From Rickettsiales bacterium (GTDB taxonomy: Bacteria > Pseudomonadota > Alphaproteobacteria > Rickettsiales > UBA1997): 56,177 nt of DNA. The notes beneath the pieces are model-generated. The model made no database searches, was not told where the DNA came from, and saw only the letters and a program-made list of their open reading frames with translations. Made by a program: the position numbers and the translations under genes. Location: NCBI GenBank assembly GCA_028688645.1, contig JAQTXT010000001.1, forward strand, positions 1-56,177, given 5' to 3'. Of the stretch, positions 79 through 34,468 are shown in pieces. The number at the start of each line of letters is the position of its first letter. The stretch's first letter is position 1.

Positions 79-2316
79 ATGGAAAATAATGTTATAAATA
101 ATGTTTTGTTTTTAAAGCCAGATACAAAAAACAGACTTTCAAAATCTTTTAAAGATGCGAAAGAAGGTTCCATTTCTGACTTTTTAAATAATCTTTCAAA
201 AAATAGTTTAAAATTAATCTCTGGTAATGAAGAAGATATAATAAAACAGGAATTAATTAATCAAAAACTTTTTAAAGTTTATAAAGAATATATACGAGAA
301 GAAATTGAAAGCGAATATGAAACAAAAGAAGAACAAAGAGATACAAAAGTTAGTTCAAAGCACTCAGTTCAAGAATATATAGATAAACAAGACTGGAGAA
401 TTAACGCTAATGCAAATACTGGTTATAGTAATGCTGGTATGATTAATAATCTTTCTGGAAAATTAATCGCAAACTATTGGTTAGATAATATCTTCTCAAA
501 AGAAGAAGGTGAATCTCATAGAATTGGAGATTATCATATTCATGATTTAGATTGTTTAACAGCTTATTGTGCTGGTTGGTCTTTAAGAGCTCTACTTGAT
601 GAAGGATTTAACGGAGTTAAAGGTAGAGTTTCTGCACAAGCACCTAAACACTTTAGAAGTGCTTTAGGACAAATGGCAAACTTTTTAGGTATTTTGCAGT
701 CAGAATGGGCTGGAGCACAAGCTTTTAGTAGTTTTGATACTTATTTGGCACCTTATGTATTTTTAGATAATTTAACACCAAAAGAAATAAAAAGAGCTAT
801 TGCTAGTTTTGTATACAATTTAAATGTTCCTGCAAGGTGGGGACAATCTCCTTTTACAAATGTAACAATGGATTTTACAGTTCCAACAGATTTAAAAGAT
901 CAATTTCCAACTAGAGAAGGACAACATTTATTCAAAGGTCTTGGAGAAGGAAATTTATTTGGAGAAGATAATCTATTAGAAAAAGCAAGAGAGAGGGGTG
1001 TAGAAAACTTAGAGGAATTAACGTATAAACATTTCCAAAAAGAACTTGAAATGATTGATGTTGCATATTATGAGGTAATGACAGAAGGCGATAATGAAGG
1101 TCAACCTTTTACTTTTCCTATCCCAACAGTTAACATAACAGAAGACTTTAAATGGGATACACCAGCCGCTGATGCATTATTTGAAAATACAGCAAAAATA
1201 GGTAGCTCATATTTCCAAAATTTCCTTGGAAGTCAATACATGAAAGATAAAGATGGAAATTTAGTTCCTAATCCAGATGCTTATAAACCAGGTGCCGTTA
1301 GAAGCATGTGCTGTCGTCTTCAATTAGATTTAAGAGAACTTTTGAGAAGAGGAAATGGATTATTTGGATCAGCAGAAATGACTGGTTCTATTGGTGTTGT
1401 AACACTTAATATGGCAAGACTTGGTTATAGGTTTAAAGGTTATTCTGACGGTATTGCAAGAATTGGCGACAAACAAGGCATGCTAAAAGAAATCGGTAGA
1501 TTAATGGATTTAGCAAAATCAACCCTTGAAAAAAGGAGGATTTTCGTCCAAGAACTTTATGAAAGAGGCTTTTATCCATACACTAAAAGATATTTAAAAC
1601 ATTTTAGAAATCATTTCTCAACTATCGGAATAAATGGTATGAATGAAATGATAAGAAATTTCACTGATGATAGTTATGATATTAGCGATTCAAAGGGTAT
1701 AGTCTTAGCTACAGAAATTCTTGAATTCATGAGAAGTAAATTGAAAGAATATCAAAATGAAACTGGAAATTTATATAACTTAGAAGCAACGCCAGCTGAA
1801 GGAACTACTTATAGATTTGCTAAAGAGGATAGAAAGAGGTATCCAAACATAATTCAAGCAGGAACTTATCCAAACATCTATTATACAAATAGCAGTCAGT
1901 TGCCTTCAAATTATACAGATGATCCATTTACAGCTTTGACTTTGCAAAATGATTTACAAAGTAAATATACAGGAGGAACAGTATTGCATTTATATATGAG
2001 TGAGAGAATTAGTAGTGGTGAAGCATGTAAAAGATTTGTAAGAACTGTTTTGGGTAATTATAAGATGCCATATATCACAATAACTCCTGTATTCTCAACA
2101 TGTTCTGAGCATGGTTATTTAAATGGCGAACAAAAAACTTGCCCAATATGTGGAGAACCAACACAGGTATGGACTAGAGTTATGGGATACCACAGACCAG
2201 TTGACCAATTTAATGTTGGAAAACAAGGTGAACATAATGAAAGATTATTCTTCAAGGAAGACACAGAAGAAATCTGTGCTTATGAAAAGAAAATCAAAAA
2301 AACAACAGCTTGTTAA
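79..2316 (+). CDS. nrdD: Anaerobic (class III) ribonucleoside-triphosphate reductase
   Basis: 745 aa. The C-terminal Zn-ribbon reads CSEHGY..CPICG. It is followed by the glycyl-radical motif TRVMGYHRPV..NVGKQGE. The core has class III RNR length and similarity. No ATP-cone motif was recognised at the N-terminus. Confidence 0.93.
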   Translation: MENNVINNVLFLKPDTKNRLSKSFKDAKEGSISDFLNNLSKNSLKLISGNEEDIIKQELINQKLFKVYKEYIREEIESEYETKEEQRDTKVSSKHSVQEYIDKQDWRINANANTGYSNAGMINNLSGKLIANYWLDNIFSKEEGESHRIGDYHIHDLDCLTAYCAGWSLRALLDEGFNGVKGRVSAQAPKHFRSALGQMANFLGILQSEWAGAQAFSSFDTYLAPYVFLDNLTPKEIKRAIASFVYNLNVPARWGQSPFTNVTMDFTVPTDLKDQFPTREGQHLFKGLGEGNLFGEDNLLEKARERGVENLEELTYKHFQKELEMIDVAYYEVMTEGDNEGQPFTFPIPTVNITEDFKWDTPAADALFENTAKIGSSYFQNFLGSQYMKDKDGNLVPNPDAYKPGAVRSMCCRLQLDLRELLRRGNGLFGSAEMTGSIGVVTLNMARLGYRFKGYSDGIARIGDKQGMLKEIGRLMDLAKSTLEKRRIFVQELYERGFYPYTKRYLKHFRNHFSTIGINGMNEMIRNFTDDSYDISDSKGIVLATEILEFMRSKLKEYQNETGNLYNLEATPAEGTTYRFAKEDRKRYPNIIQAGTYPNIYYTNSSQLPSNYTDDPFTALTLQNDLQSKYTGGTVLHLYMSERISSGEACKRFVRTVLGNYKMPYITITPVFSTCSEHGYLNGEQKTCPICGEPTQVWTRVMGYHRPVDQFNVGKQGEHNERLFFKEDTEEICAYEKKIKKTTAC

Positions 2317-6875: not shown

Positions 6876-7110
6876 TAGACCTATTGCATAAATAATTTTT
6901 CCACAAAAAATAATTTATACAAAAAAAGACGAAGATATTTCAAAATTGTTAGCAGAAACAGTATACTTATATATTTCGTTGTTAAAAATTTTGAAATTCT
7001 GAAGGATTTTGAAGTAGAAATTAAATTTTTGTGGAAAATATTATAAAACTTCCCATACTCAGATGTCTTTTTTCCATTGAAAAATTTCAAATTATTATGC
7101 AACAGGTCTA
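6876..7110. mobile_element. MITE-like palindromic element, copy B (235 bp, carries a nested insertion of about 78 bp)
   Basis: It has the same termini and internal blocks as 2411-2566 and the same orientation. An extra segment at about 6948-7025 carries its own inverted copy of atttcaaaat. The 73-aa ORF at 6881-7102 (-) lies wholly inside the element and is judged spurious. Confidence 0.75.
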
Positions 7111-7117
7111 TTATCGT

Positions 7118-8860
7118 TTATAATCTTTCTTTTTCCTTGTTAGCCTCAGTTTCTTCTCTTCTTCTTTTTATTTTTGGTTCTATACTTGTTGTTTCTACAA
7201 TCTTCATATCATCAGATTTTTGACGCATTAAAGCTTCCCCTACTCTTGTTCTAACTAAACCTCTAGTTTCTTGTCGATATTCACTTATAGAGCCAATTTG
7301 TGGAGATGGGGCAATAAATTTTGGAACTTTAATAACTCGTTTTATAATCGGAAGAATTTTTTCAGGCATTATTGTAAAATCATCTCCAGGCAATATAAGC
7401 GAAAATCTACTATCAATTTCATGTAATTTTTTAAAAATAACGGGTAAATTTGCTTCATCACTTATTTTTTTTAGTTCATCTATAAATATTCTTCTATTTT
7501 CTTTCGTACCCAGCCTTTTTCTTATGTTAGGACACATACTAATTAAAAAATCTATTATATACTTATCTTTAGGATTAACCATAATAGCATTTCTCGTTTG
7601 TGCAGCAAGACGCTCAAAATAACATGCTTGCAAGGCTATATAATATTGCCCATTAAATATTTCACTTTTTGGATTTATACAATGAGGAAAACCTATTTCA
7701 TCTCCCAATAATCCAAAAGCCATATGAAGTGGAAGAGGTTTTTTTAAATTTTGCGCAATTAAATGAAGAGCATAAAAACTAACCTTTGTTCCCTCATTAT
7801 TTATGTCATCCCACATTGCTTGTAAAATTTCAATAGGGATATTTGGATTTTGTACAAGCCCGCAAACAACATTAGGATTAATCATCATTTTATTATTCCA
7901 TATAGCTTGTAAAATTTCAACAGGAGTACTTGAATTTTTTATAAGTTGTTCAATAAATTCTAAATTATCTCTTATGTTTTTCACATTTATCTCATTCCAC
8001 ATTGCTTGTAAAATTTCAATAGGGATATTTGGATTTTGTGCAAGTCTAAAGATAATAACAGATCTAACTCCTTTTTCTTTTGTATTTTTCTCACCCCATA
8101 TCATCTGTAAAATTTTAACAGGAGTATTCAGATTTTTAGCAATTTCACATAAAACAGCAGAATTAACTTTTGTCCCTTCTGTATTTCTTTCATCCCACAT
8201 TGCTTGTAAAATATTAACAGGAGTTTTTGTATTTCCAGCAATTTCACATAAAACAGCAGAATTAACTTTTGTCCCTTCTGTATTTTTTTCATCCCACATT
8301 GCTTGTAAAATATCTATAGGAGTATTTGGATTTCCAGCAATTTTACATAAAACAGCAGAATCAACCTTTGTTCCTTCTTTATTTCTTTCATCCCACATTG
8401 CTTGCAAAATATTAATAGGAATATTCTTATTATGCGCAAGCCCATAAATAACATGAGAATCAACCTTTGTTCCTTCTGTATTTCTTTCATCCCACATTGC
8501 TTGTAAAATATCTATAGGGGTATTTGGATTTCTAGCAATTTCACATAAAACATCAAAATTAACCTTTGTTCCTTCTGTATTTCTTTCATCCCACATTGCT
8601 TGTAAAATATCTATAGGGGTATTTGGATTTCTAGCAAAATAACACAAAGTGCTAAGAAATATAACTTTTCTTTTATTTTCTTCAATCCAAATTTCTCTCA
8701 AAACTTCAGTAGGAGTATTCTGATTTATTATAAGTAAAATTAAAATATCGTGATTAAGTTTTTCATTTTTCCACATTGCCCTCAATATTCTAGGAGGAGT
8801 GTACGCATCTCTAGCTAGGACTTCGAATGAAAATCTTTTATATAACAAATCAATATCCAT
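7118..8860 (-). CDS. Tandem-repeat protein (eleven 33-aa NPNTPxxILQAMW repeats) with an unknown C-terminal domain
   Basis: 580 aa. The repeat unit is ..NPNTPIDILQAMWDERNTEGTKVxSAVLCEIA.. and is reminiscent of leucine-rich-repeat-variant / HEAT-like helical repeats. The last 200 aa or so are unrelated to the repeats. Confidence 0.85.
   Translation of the reverse strand: MDIDLLYKRFSFEVLARDAYTPPRILRAMWKNEKLNHDILILLIINQNTPTEVLREIWIEENKRKVIFLSTLCYFARNPNTPIDILQAMWDERNTEGTKVNFDVLCEIARNPNTPIDILQAMWDERNTEGTKVDSHVIYGLAHNKNIPINILQAMWDERNKEGTKVDSAVLCKIAGNPNTPIDILQAMWDEKNTEGTKVNSAVLCEIAGNTKTPVNILQAMWDERNTEGTKVNSAVLCEIAKNLNTPVKILQMIWGEKNTKEKGVRSVIIFRLAQNPNIPIEILQAMWNEINVKNIRDNLEFIEQLIKNSSTPVEILQAIWNNKMMINPNVVCGLVQNPNIPIEILQAMWDDINNEGTKVSFYALHLIAQNLKKPLPLHMAFGLLGDEIGFPHCINPKSEIFNGQYYIALQACYFERLAAQTRNAIMVNPKDKYIIDFLISMCPNIRKRLGTKENRRIFIDELKKISDEANLPVIFKKLHEIDSRFSLILPGDDFTIMPEKILPIIKRVIKVPKFIAPSPQIGSISEYRQETRGLVRTRVGEALMRQKSDDMKIVETTSIEPKIKRRREETEANKEKERL
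7745..8815 (-). repeat. 99-bp in-frame tandem repeat array (about 11 units; near-identical core about 8132-8635)
   Basis: The string cctttgttccttctgtatttctttcatcccacattgcttgtaaaatatctataggggtatttggatttctagcaa recurs exactly 99 bp apart, for example at 8464 and 8563. Confidence 0.9.
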
Positions 8861-20548: not shown

Positions 20549-21307
20549 ATGGAAACAATTTTAAGTAGAAAACAAATTATAATCGATATAATTAGTGGAA
20601 ATACAACGCAAAGAAAAAGATGGGATTTATCTGGACTTGATTTAAGAGAATTAGATTTATCAGATCTAGACTTGAGCGGTGTTATTCTTTTTAATGCTAA
20701 AATTGATAGAACCTGTGTAGAAAAAATCATGAATGGACAAATTAAAGGAATAGAAAAAGGAAATTTATCTGAATTTGATTTAAGTGGATTAGATTTATCA
20801 AATATGGATCTTTCAAAAGCTAATTTAACTAAAGCTGATTTAAGTGCTACTAATCTGACCGAAGTCAATCTAACTGGAGCTAATCTAGAAGTAGCAAATT
20901 TAACTATGGCTAACTTAACTATGGCAAATTTGACTATGACGAACTTAACTATGGCAAATTTGACTAAAGCTAATTTAACTAAAGCTAATTTAACTAGAGC
21001 TAATTTGACAAGAGCTAATCTTTACGACACTATTTTAATCAGAGCTCATTTAATCAAAACTATATTTGCTGACAACGATATGACTGGAGCTGATCTAAGT
21101 GAAGCTATTTTAATTAAAGTTGATTTAAGTAAAATCAATCTAAGAAGAACTATTATCAGTTTTAACTGGGTCGATAGCCAAACAGGAACACCGCCTAGAA
21201 GTAGTATTATAAGTATAGGTCAACAAACCTCACCTAAACTAAAAATTTTTTCTTTACAACATAGATCCAAAAAAATACCAACAAAAACTATATATTCAAC
21301 TCTATAG
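20549..21307 (+). CDS. Pentapeptide-repeat protein
   Basis: 252 aa. There is a long run of A(N/D)L(T/S)x pentapeptides (ANLTKANLTRANL...). The C-terminus is a basic tail. Confidence 0.85.
   Translation: METILSRKQIIIDIISGNTTQRKRWDLSGLDLRELDLSDLDLSGVILFNAKIDRTCVEKIMNGQIKGIEKGNLSEFDLSGLDLSNMDLSKANLTKADLSATNLTEVNLTGANLEVANLTMANLTMANLTMTNLTMANLTKANLTKANLTRANLTRANLYDTILIRAHLIKTIFADNDMTGADLSEAILIKVDLSKINLRRTIISFNWVDSQTGTPPRSSIISIGQQTSPKLKIFSLQHRSKKIPTKTIYSTL
20894..21022 (+). repeat. 15-bp in-frame tandem repeats encoding ANLT(M/K/R)
   Basis: Units such as gcaaatttaactatg, gctaacttaactatg and gcaaatttgactatg repeat about 8-9 times. Confidence 0.85.
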
Positions 21308-29262: not shown

Positions 29263-29361
29263 TCCAACAAACAGTTATAATATCTTGTTAAATACTATGA
29301 ATTTATTTTTTTTAATCAAGATATTTAATTGACAAATAAAAGCGAATAATTAACAATTGAT

Positions 29362-29540
29362 TTGCCCGTATGGGCAGCGGCATAAGAAACCGAATAAAGC
29401 TTTTAAAACCTCTCTTTTGTTTTTATAACATAAAGCGGAGGCTTATAGTTATAATGAGTTGTTTACAACTCAAAAGGCTGTAAGGGCTGAGCTTTATCAG
29501 TTTTCTTAACCTCCGCACTTTATTTTAAAGTGCGATTTTT
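29362..29540 (+). ncRNA. Structured leader or sRNA candidate, copy 1 (ends in a terminator-like hairpin just upstream of a small ORF)
   Basis: - Possible promoter: TTGACA at 29329-29334 and AACAAT at 29351-29356.
- Hairpin TGCCC-GTAT-GGGCA, 29362-29375.
- GCGGAGG (29434-29440) pairs with CCTCCGC (29509-29515). This stem encloses hairpin GAGTTG-TTTA-CAACTC (29455-29470) and a conserved block at 29472-29501.
- CGCACTTT / AAAGTGCG + ATTTTTA, 29513-29540.
- GC is visibly higher than in the flanks, and a homologous copy lies at 34247-34431 (-). Confidence 0.5.
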
Positions 29541-29564
29541 ATTAATAATAAAAAAGGTAAAGAA

Positions 29565-29873
29565 ATGATGACAGAAAAACTAAAAGAACCTAACAAACAA
29601 CTAAACGAAAAAATAGAAAAGAAAAAAGATGATATTAGTGTAAAAGATGAAATAGAACTAATTGAAAGAAAAATATTAAAAGAAGAATTAATTCAACTTG
29701 AAATAAAAGCTATTAAATATTATGTGAATAATAATCTTAACAATAGATGTGATTTAATGAATTTGTATAAATTATCAAAGTATATACGAGGAACTCATAA
29801 GAAAAATAAATCAAATAAAACTATGATTGAAAGAGTTGAAAATTTGTTAGAAAGTGTAGCGAAGAAAAACTAA
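29565..29873 (+). CDS. Small lysine-rich hypothetical protein (paralog of 33921-34226)
   Basis: 102 aa. A purine-rich aaaaaggtaaagaa sequence precedes the ATG. It shares a segment with the other small ORF: I.KYYVNNNL.N..DLMNLYKLSKYI against IVMYFVANKLKSNDDIIRLREITDYMI. Both are preceded by the same structured RNA. Confidence 0.6.
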   Translation: MMTEKLKEPNKQLNEKIEKKKDDISVKDEIELIERKILKEELIQLEIKAIKYYVNNNLNNRCDLMNLYKLSKYIRGTHKKNKSNKTMIERVENLLESVAKKN

Positions 29874-29877
29874 CAAT

Positions 29878-30093
29878 TTGTAGCTCCCCTTTGCCCTTCG
29901 GGCATTTCCCCTCAAGGAGAGGAAAGATATTCTGGCTTGTTGAACTATCTTTTCTTAATCACTACTCGTAATCTTTCCCCTCCTTGAGAGCAAGCACAAA
30001 GCCGAACCGATAGCCGCTTGCAGACAATCGGCAGCTTGTCGTTCGGCAAAGTGCGACGGTGTCAAATGCCCGAAGGGCAAAGGGGAGCTACAA
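29878..30093. repeat. Relatively GC-rich 216-bp element bounded by perfect 30-bp inverted repeats (candidate structured RNA or palindromic mobile element)
   Basis: - Outer arms: ttgtagctcccctttgcccttcgggcattt (29878-29907) is the exact reverse complement of 30064-30093.
- Inner 18-bp stem: 29911-29928 with 29971-29988 (one mismatch).
- Third stem: gccgaac (30001-30007) with gttcggc (30041-30047).
- GC is clearly above local background. Confidence 0.85.
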
Positions 30094-33498: not shown

Positions 33499-33864
33499 AT
33501 GTCTACAAAAATTAGATTAGCAAGATTTGGAAGGAATAAAACTCCATTTTATCATATAGTTGTTACTGATTCTAGAAATAGAAGAGATAGCAAATTTATA
33601 GAAACCATTGGAACTTTTAACCCATTATTAGCTGATGATAGTAAAGATAAAATAGTTCTTAAAAAAGATAGAGCTGAATATTGGTTAAGTGTAGGTGCTG
33701 AACCTACAGAAAGAATGGCTATACTTATGATTAAGTTAGGCGTAAAGGGAGCAGACAAATACAAACCAGTATTTGTTCCAAAAGCTAAAGCTGTAAAGGT
33801 TGAAGAAACAAAAGCTGAAGAAGTTAAAGCTGAAGAGCCAAAAACTGAAGAACCACAAGCTTAA
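33499..33864 (+). CDS. rpsP: 30S ribosomal protein S16 with a Lys/Glu-rich C-terminal extension
   Basis: MSTKIRLARFGRNKTPFYHIVVTDSRNRRD.. is the canonical S16 N-terminus. Confidence 0.95.
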   Translation: MSTKIRLARFGRNKTPFYHIVVTDSRNRRDSKFIETIGTFNPLLADDSKDKIVLKKDRAEYWLSVGAEPTERMAILMIKLGVKGADKYKPVFVPKAKAVKVEETKAEEVKAEEPKTEEPQA

Positions 33865-33920: not shown

Positions 33921-34226
33921 TTAGTCCATTGACACTTCTTCTAAAAATGTAATGAATAATTTATTTAATTTTTCTGTTATTAAATTTAATCTTTTTAACT
34001 TTACTTTCTTATTATATTTAATTCTGCAAGTTTTAATCATATAATCAGTTATTTCTCTTAATCTAATTATATCATCATTGCTTTTTAGTTTATTGGCAAC
34101 AAAATACATAACTATTTCTTTTTTAACTTTAAACATTTTCAAATTTATTGATTGATTTTCATCTAATTTTTCTTGGAGAATTTTATTTCTGTCCAATTTT
34201 TTTACTTTTTCAATCAGTTCTTCCAT
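33921..34226 (-). CDS. Small lysine-rich hypothetical protein (paralog of 29565-29873)
   Basis: 101 aa. aaaaaagaggtaaaaa precedes the ATG (minus strand). It has the same upstream structured RNA as the 29565 ORF. Confidence 0.6.
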   Translation of the reverse strand: MEELIEKVKKLDRNKILQEKLDENQSINLKMFKVKKEIVMYFVANKLKSNDDIIRLREITDYMIKTCRIKYNKKVKLKRLNLITEKLNKLFITFLEEVSMD

Positions 34227-34246
34227 TTTTTACCTCTTTTTTAATT

Positions 34247-34431
34247 AATAAAAAACGCACTTAAAAAAGTGCGGGGGTTAAAACAACTGACAAAGTTCAG
34301 CCCTTACAGCCTTTCAAGCTATAAAAAGCCTATTATAACCGCAAGCCTCCGCTATATAAATATAACGAAAGCCGACAGTCAATAGTAAAACTTTGTTTGA
34401 TGTTTTAAGCCATCACTCTTGCCCGCAGGCA
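34247..34431 (-). ncRNA. Structured leader or sRNA candidate, copy 2
   Basis: On the minus strand:
- TTGACA (34464-34459).
- Hairpin TGCC-TGCG-GGCA (34431-34420).
- GCGGAGG (34352-34346) pairs with CCCCCGC (34277-34271), with one mismatch.
- Hairpin AGGCT-TTTTAT-AGCTT (34331-34316) replaces the copy-1 hairpin at the same position.
- Conserved block 34314-34285.
- Terminator-like CGCACTT-TTTT-AAGTGCG + U-tract (34273-34247). Confidence 0.5.
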
Positions 34432-34468
34432 GTTTAATTTTTAAATGCTTGGTTTATTTGTCAACGAA

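Follow-up and report, generated by a model that had tools for sequence, protein, structure and literature searches.

Within a 56,177-nucleotide stretch of DNA (the window, meaning the whole stretch that was analysed), a folded RNA ends in an intrinsic terminator and a small ORF starts closely behind it, an arrangement that raises the question of how the ORF is transcribed and what kind of RNA precedes it. An earlier note on this DNA had seen here an aptamer-like RNA with riboswitch or attenuator architecture, with an independent small RNA as the alternative reading. We find that the locus belongs to a family of RNA-protein modules that is real and well supported, and we could not find this module family described. 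It is restricted to a narrow uncultured lineage, and its breadth is thereby limited.

Copies of the module and the protein family

The promoter, 5' hairpin, helix strands, internal hairpin and terminator listed by the earlier note for copy 1 are all present, with coordinates about 1 nt off (the hairpin placed at 29362-29375 lies at 29363-29376, and GCGGAGG and CCTCCGC are likewise shifted by 1 nt; Table 1), and the purine-rich ribosome-binding region (AAAAAAGGTAAAG) and the 102-aa ORF were found behind the terminator as described. The terminator stem occupies 29514-29534 with ATTTTTATT directly 3' of it, and the terminator is present in the minimum-free-energy fold. The second module, claimed at 33921-34464, is a real copy but its strand is minus. 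The RNA segments of the two copies share 77-81% identity and their ORF products only 20-22%; an exact 18-mer is common to both (0.02 expected). Housekeeping genes surround the copies (pheT, tatD, a bactofilin gene, an IalB-like gene, rpsP and miaB), the GC content in the window is 22-32%, and the source genome appears to be that of a low-GC Rickettsiales and is presumably reduced.

Table 1. Coordinates of module parts and neighbouring palindromic elements (window positions unless a locus is named)
Feature	Position	Strand	Details
Copy 1 promoter	29329..29357	+	-35 TTGACA, 17-nt spacer, -10 AACAAT; score 10/12
Copy 1 -35 TTGACA	29329-29334	+	
Copy 1 structured RNA	29360..29541	+	covariance-model match 141 bits, E 4e-37; fold z-score -6.0 against dinucleotide shuffles
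Copy 1 5' hairpin TGCCC-GTAT-GGGCA	29363-29376	+	
Copy 1 P0 hairpin	29364-29375	+	
Copy 1 P1	29379-29389 with 29502-29511	+	
Copy 1 P2	29394-29402 with 29489-29497	+	
Copy 1 P3 hairpin	29409-29441	+	
Copy 1 GCGGAGG	29435-29441	+	
Copy 1 P4a	29442-29450 with 29476-29484	+	
Copy 1 P4b	29455-29472	+	
Copy 1 internal hairpin GAGTTG-TTTA-CAACTC	29456-29471	+	
Copy 1 CCTCCGC	29510-29516	+	
Copy 1 intrinsic terminator	29514..29541	+	CGCACTTTA / TAAAGTGCG, then ATTTTTA; 9 pairs, 4 G-C
Copy 1 ORF, PHY80_00105 (GenBank)	29565..29873	+	102 aa, pI 9.4, four predicted helices
Copy 2 promoter	34437..34464	-	-35 TTGACA, 16-nt spacer, -10 AAAAAT
Copy 2 -35	34464-34459	-	
Copy 2 structured RNA	34249..34430	-	covariance-model match 178 bits, E 4e-47; fold z-score -5.8 against dinucleotide shuffles
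Copy 2 intrinsic terminator	34250..34273	-	CGCACTT / AAGTGCG, then TTTTTT; stem 34273-34256
Copy 2 ORF, PHY80_00140 (GenBank)	33921..34226	-	101 aa, pI 9.6; ribosome-binding site AGAGGT upstream
GC-rich MITE-like palindromic element, 216 bp	29878..30093	.	perfect 30-nt terminal inverted repeats; 5 nt after the stop codon of the copy 1 ORF
Short palindrome	L003:~700-800		
Short palindrome	L006:~600-770		
Short palindrome	L007:6530-6575		
Short palindrome	L018:7425-7500		
Short palindrome	L019:2080-2125		
Short palindrome	L022:1225-1262		

That the module recurs was borne out on a larger scale by 18-mer, pattern, protein and covariance-model searches, which yielded at least 18 copies, 16 of them retrieved from contigs outside the window. 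The invariant 18-mer AAAGGCTGTAAGGGCTGA occurs at seven loci of the related MAG GCA_964493475.1 (30% GC), to which protein look-ups added 4 copies, so that this genome holds at least 11 RNA copies altogether; the source Rickettsiales MAG has at least 7 ORF paralogues. A second DNA pattern found copies in two JGI metagenomes (L030, L033, L034 and L037). Eleven chance matches of the genome-wide 18-mer scan, all in unrelated high-GC genomes, were discarded after inspection, and the metagenome pattern search gave 11 unrelated matches besides the true copies; viral contigs searched with the two DNA patterns held no module copy. A covariance model made from 15 full copies gave 18 solid matches, and within the window it matched copies 1 and 2 only. 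Related reads come from anaerobic-digester metagenomes.

The order of parts is a promoter whose -35 element is the consensus TTGACA, an RNA of 178-211 nt, a strong intrinsic terminator, a good Shine-Dalgarno sequence and the ORF. Most copies on other contigs have TTGACA followed by TAAnAAT, 6-8 nt 5' of the hairpin. The start codon lies behind a conserved AGAGGT, 12-24 nt 3' of the U-tract, a spacing found in 7 of 9 copies; in L015 the spacer measures about 54 nt with a palindrome inserted, and a comparable insertion is present in L033. Module sites differ between genomes, being set in varied housekeeping contexts that are not syntenic. The RNA precedes the ORF in all complete ORF copies that were retrieved, and the RNA copies that have no ORF are decayed (L037:518-693 and, on the minus strand, L034:111-275): one of them has no terminator, and the other has a palindrome in place of its 5' half. 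An intact module lies downstream of each degenerate RNA copy, a pattern that suggests tandem duplication followed by decay.

The ORFs encode basic proteins of 90-120 aa that are predicted to be all-helical. The eight ORFs retrieved with their RNAs proved to be conserved and align as one family (conserved Y, N, D, L, R, T and R), and the dN/dS of 0.13-0.27 for close ORF pairs indicates that they are real genes under purifying selection. The RNAs are 70-96% identical where synonymous sites differ by 30-64%. Judging by these comparisons, both parts of the module are under selection. The family is small, with 24 proteins among 5.8 billion, and a profile search of 1.84 billion representatives gave 16 matches, all of them family members. 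The pI of all members is 8.8-9.8; a high pI is common among proteins of AT-rich genomes. As the earlier note had held, the ORF product belongs to no recognisable family: searches of Pfam, PHROGs and PADLOC with 25 members gave isolated single-member matches that never recurred, a helix-turn-helix Pfam match was found in 0 of the 25, and a PDB profile search with the family gave no match. The AlphaFold2 model of the 102-aa protein consists of four long helices (pLDDT 80), for which the best Foldseek E-values were 2.0 against the PDB and 0.5 against viral structures. With family and fold matches both negative, a nucleic-acid activity of this orphan protein would be a conjecture.

The clustering of the RNAs was compared between copies in L003, L007 and L017 and copies 1 and 2 of the window; the RNAs group by genome and the ORFs group by subfamily across genomes. 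RNAs that accompany different ORF subfamilies in one genome are 81-83% identical, and those that accompany one ORF subfamily across genomes are about 71% identical. The RNA is thus closer within a genome than across one subfamily, which argues for concerted evolution or gene conversion of the RNA part only.

Fold of the RNA and its relation to the terminator

The consensus fold comprises the helices P0, P1, P2, P3, P4a and P4b and the terminator. P0, the 5' hairpin, has a loop of the UACG type. P1 (10 bp) and P2 (6 bp) together form a long closing stem, of which P2 is hypervariable and shows covariation at 6 of 6 pairs, with up to 4 pair types. P3 is a G.U-rich hairpin with the invariant 3' strand AGCGGAGG, and its many G.U pairs indicate that the transcribed strand is the ORF strand. 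P4a (CUUGCGGUU pairing with GGCUGUAAG) and the variable hairpin P4b form a composite, and AUAAU and GGCUGA are invariant single-stranded stretches.

In alignment A7 (18 copies), which was built with the covariance model and fitted to the structure and is hence biased towards it, 96.9% of the cells are paired, compared with about 42% in register-slid controls, 22 of 55 pairs have compensatory changes in which both sides are altered, and the covariation score is 0.377 as against 0.04-0.07 for registers slid by 1-3 columns. None of 500 shuffles matched the observed A7 values, a control that overstates significance because the copies are related. Identical helices were obtained from an unfitted MAFFT alignment with RNAalifold. 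A conserved structured domain is backed by this covariation, the covarying helices being those of the consensus fold given here. An extension of P3 competes with P4a, and there is partial support for each: in the extended P3, one pair shows 2 compensatory changes and two others contain 3-4 unpaired cells, and P4a is 100% paired with 1 compensatory change. The two may be alternative conformers.

The RNA also lies outside the known classes, in agreement with the earlier note: the covariance models of Rfam 15 gave 0 matches over the entire window at the gathering threshold, and in E-value mode the best overlapping match scored 26 bits against a cut-off of 60 and covered the terminator only, on the wrong strand. 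ARAGORN found no tRNA and no tmRNA, and Tandem Repeats Finder together with a repeat search found no tandem repeats within 29340-29541 or 34249-34464. The roughly 180-nt folded RNA is, on these comparisons, a candidate new RNA family, with strong covariation and, as its strict one-to-one partner, an orphan protein family of about 24 sequences. A short peptide ORF behind GGAGG inside the RNA was rejected on inspection, being not conserved between copies.

The earlier note had taken GCGGAGG and CCTCCGC as the strands of a closing helix that competes with the terminator. The closing helix that covariation backs is P1 with P2 (29379-29402 with 29489-29511); it stops 2 nt short of the terminator stem, so that the two do not compete, and in that form the claim is not supported. 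What does stand is that both sequences are present and that a helix between them, the only candidate antiterminator, overlaps the terminator through its CGC. As the main fold this helix fares badly, since in 15 of 15 full copies the forced fold is 8.6 to 18.8 kcal/mol less favourable than the terminator fold, which is the minimum-free-energy fold; in the consensus fold GCGGAGG is instead the 3' strand of P3. The terminator was found in all intact copies. Both strands of the GCGGAGG/CCTCCGC helix are invariant in the 18 copies apart from one A.C mismatch in copy 2, and covariation is therefore silent for or against it. That GCGGAGG, CCUCCGC and the stem of the terminator are all invariant amid drifting helices is suggestive of two alternative pairings for each segment, and a factor-dependent antiterminator may exist. 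The internal -10 element proposed at TTATAAT could not be upheld: the motif is invariant, but it falls within the internal loop of P4, and a conserved -35 is lacking.

Expression of the ORF and likeness to known systems

The 12-24 nt between the U-tract and the start codon leave no space for an ORF promoter, and a fixed-spacing promoter that spans the terminator is ruled out by a terminator loop whose length varies. With no room for a promoter of its own, the ORF could be transcribed only by read-through of the terminator. The reading that we favour, with moderate confidence and by analogy with the Brt/Trp system of Bartonella, is that the RNA is a default-terminating small RNA or attenuator leader and that the ORF is expressed by read-through. 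A strong sigma-70-type promoter drives the RNA; the terminator would form by default and most transcripts would end as a stable small RNA, the protein arising solely from transcripts that read through the terminator, by leak or on a signal. The RNA would in this way double as a small RNA and as the transcription-attenuating leader of the protein gene. For read-through to be conditional, a factor would have to intervene, whether a ligand or a protein and possibly the ORF product itself, and this factor could tip the balance from the weak, G.U-rich P3 to the invariant GCGGAGG:CCUCCGC pairing. The attenuator logic of the earlier note thus stays plausible, given that no promoter would fit between the terminator and the ORF, but the fold through which it was to work is not comparatively backed.

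In Bartonella, the Brt1-9 RNAs are 194-203 nt long, and the trp genes begin about 15 nt 3' of Brt with no discernible promoter (PMC5387305, PMC8070961). The 3' stem-loop is a transcriptional attenuator, as was shown experimentally for Brt1/trp1, where its deletion de-repressed trp1 (Tu et al. 2016, PMC5387305; review PMC8070961). We took the definition of the Brt/Trp layout from PMC8070961 (a multicopy family of RNAs about 200 nt long, each with a 3' stem-loop and, no more than about 15 nt behind it, a promoter-less small gene); the corresponding values here are an RNA of 178-211 nt, a gap of 12-24 nt and at least 18 copies. Both systems are alphaproteobacterial and lineage-specific, with multicopy, similar structured RNAs that carry a 3' stem-loop. 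They differ in that the Trp proteins, 108-152 aa long, bind DNA and are of the XRE helix-turn-helix type (PMC5387305, PMC8070961), whereas the module ORFs have no helix-turn-helix or other Pfam match, and in that the host of the module is an uncultured Rickettsiales of anaerobic digesters and not Bartonella. The likeness is one of layout only, the RNAs being likened by description and not by sequence, and we do not claim family membership. The module would be a second case of a layout hitherto described as Bartonella-specific, and it appears to be independent; if so, the layout would be a recurrent solution among host-associated alphaproteobacteria and not a one-off. The presence of 7-11 or more paralogous modules in a small genome suggests an important or selfish role.

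Set against this read-through model, a metabolite riboswitch seems doubtful. A ligand would here shift GCGGAGG from P3 to CCUCCGC and take the CGC base away from the terminator, giving read-through, and the module shares with terminating riboswitches and attenuator leaders a structured 5' region that is followed by an intrinsic terminator directly upstream of an ORF. In 17-18 of 18 copies GCGGAGG, CCUCCGC and the terminator stem CGCAC/GUGCG do not vary, in contrast to other helices, which covary freely, as expected of segments with two pairings; P3 holds GCGGAGG by several G.U wobbles and so would be displaceable, and the GCGGAGG/CCUCCGC helix would be compatible with P1/P2 as an H-type pseudoknot. 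That helix is nevertheless devoid of covariation and carries the mismatch in copy 2, and the energetic cost of forcing it applies to all copies. The module further differs from these leaders in that its closing helix does not overlap the terminator, no known aptamer class (nor any Rfam family) matches, it is multicopy and it is tied to one orphan gene family, which offers no link to metabolism. A metabolite riboswitch would not usually be present in at least 7-11 copies in one small genome.

We consider it unlikely that the module is an RNA-protein addiction or defence pair resembling type III toxin-antitoxin systems, in which the terminated RNA would neutralise the basic protein, the terminator would set their ratio and the pair would spread selfishly. 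Blower et al. are said to have described ToxIN-type loci as ordered promoter, RNA, terminator and protein gene, and the module has the same order, with one promoter in front and an intrinsic terminator between the genes for the RNA and the protein. Type III loci often occur in many genomic contexts, and the module too is multicopy at sites that are non-syntenic between genomes; its decayed copies point to turnover, and its protein family is orphan and basic. In type III systems (ToxIN, CptIN, TenpIN), however, the antitoxin RNA consists of tandem short repeats that are processed by the toxin, whereas the module RNA is a single complex fold with no tandem repeats. The protein is unlike ToxN, AbiQ, CptN and TenpN, its predicted helical bundle is not a ToxN/Kid-like endoribonuclease, and toxin families of PADLOC and Pfam were not consistently matched among the 25 proteins. 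The variable RNA regions do not follow the ORF subfamilies, L022 (subfamily A) and L017 (subfamily B) having an identical P4b, which gives no sign of cognate specificity. A related conjecture, to which we likewise give a low probability, is a new selfish or defensive pair in which a non-repetitive RNA would neutralise or guide a helical protein of new fold, the terminator would set the stoichiometry and the 3' palindrome would aid spread. If this were true, it would be a type of toxin-antitoxin or ribonucleoprotein system outside the current classes.

The chances are also small that the RNA stands alone, as a trans-acting small RNA or the RNA of a ribonucleoprotein, with the ORF as a partner, a chaperone or a mere neighbour and with a non-regulatory terminator. 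The independent small RNA that the earlier note named as its alternative does fit the default fold better than the competing-helix reading, and the RNA comes with a promoter and a terminator of its own, a protective hairpin at its 5' end and the invariant single-stranded AUAAU and GGCUGA; its homogenisation within a genome (81-83% vs about 71%) would fit a common trans partner. That RNA and ORF are strictly linked one to one, and that the ORF is promoter-less, argues instead for a single expression unit, the ORF-less RNA copies are degenerate, and a trans target is hypothetical. Least probable by far is a non-functional repeat or mobile-element remnant with hairpins acting at the DNA level: the module is multicopy and palindromic MITE-like elements are frequent at its 3' end, but this reading is largely refuted by compensatory changes that keep pairing, including many G.U pairs possible on one strand only, and by purifying selection on the ORF, and besides, the homology runs from the -35 element to the ORF stop codon, terminal repeats and target-site duplications are absent, and no transposase or integrase was found near the modules.

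With its short RNA and small protein, the module lends itself to simple transcription, binding and toxicity assays.

Palindromic elements and other repeats

The MITE-like element behind the copy 1 ORF has a homologue at L037:1888-2102, which likewise lies 3' of a module ORF. Such an element is often found beside the module and may be part of it. Between the window and L037 the flanks of the element are co-linear (90% identity), and the inner 42-nt core (window 29929-29970) is inverted, with 95% identity as the reverse complement and 50% when both are read the same way round. Inner inverted repeats of about 20 nt flank the core, which may thus be an invertible segment.

Short GC-rich palindromes that share the termini TAGCTCCCCTTTG ... 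CAAAGGGGAGCTA lie up to about 120 nt 3' of many module ORFs (Table 1) and only occasionally elsewhere in the loci. They may be terminators of the ORF transcripts, or REP/MITE-like elements that target such sites.

Several other repeats were seen in the window. Positions 7733-8661 hold 6-8 tandem 99-nt units of 63-78% identity, presumably encoding a 33-aa repeat protein, and a 15-nt periodic repeat at 20756-21156 resembles a pentapeptide-repeat coding region. Direct repeats of 35-90 nt (79-97% identity) at 2411-2581 and 6876-7114, about 4.5 kb apart, carry motifs of the TGCATAAATAATTTTTCCAC type and may mark the ends of a segment that was duplicated or is mobile. At 33779-33861, a 15- or 30-nt tandem repeat encodes a KAEE-rich C-terminal extension of ribosomal protein S16 (rpsP, 33499-33864).
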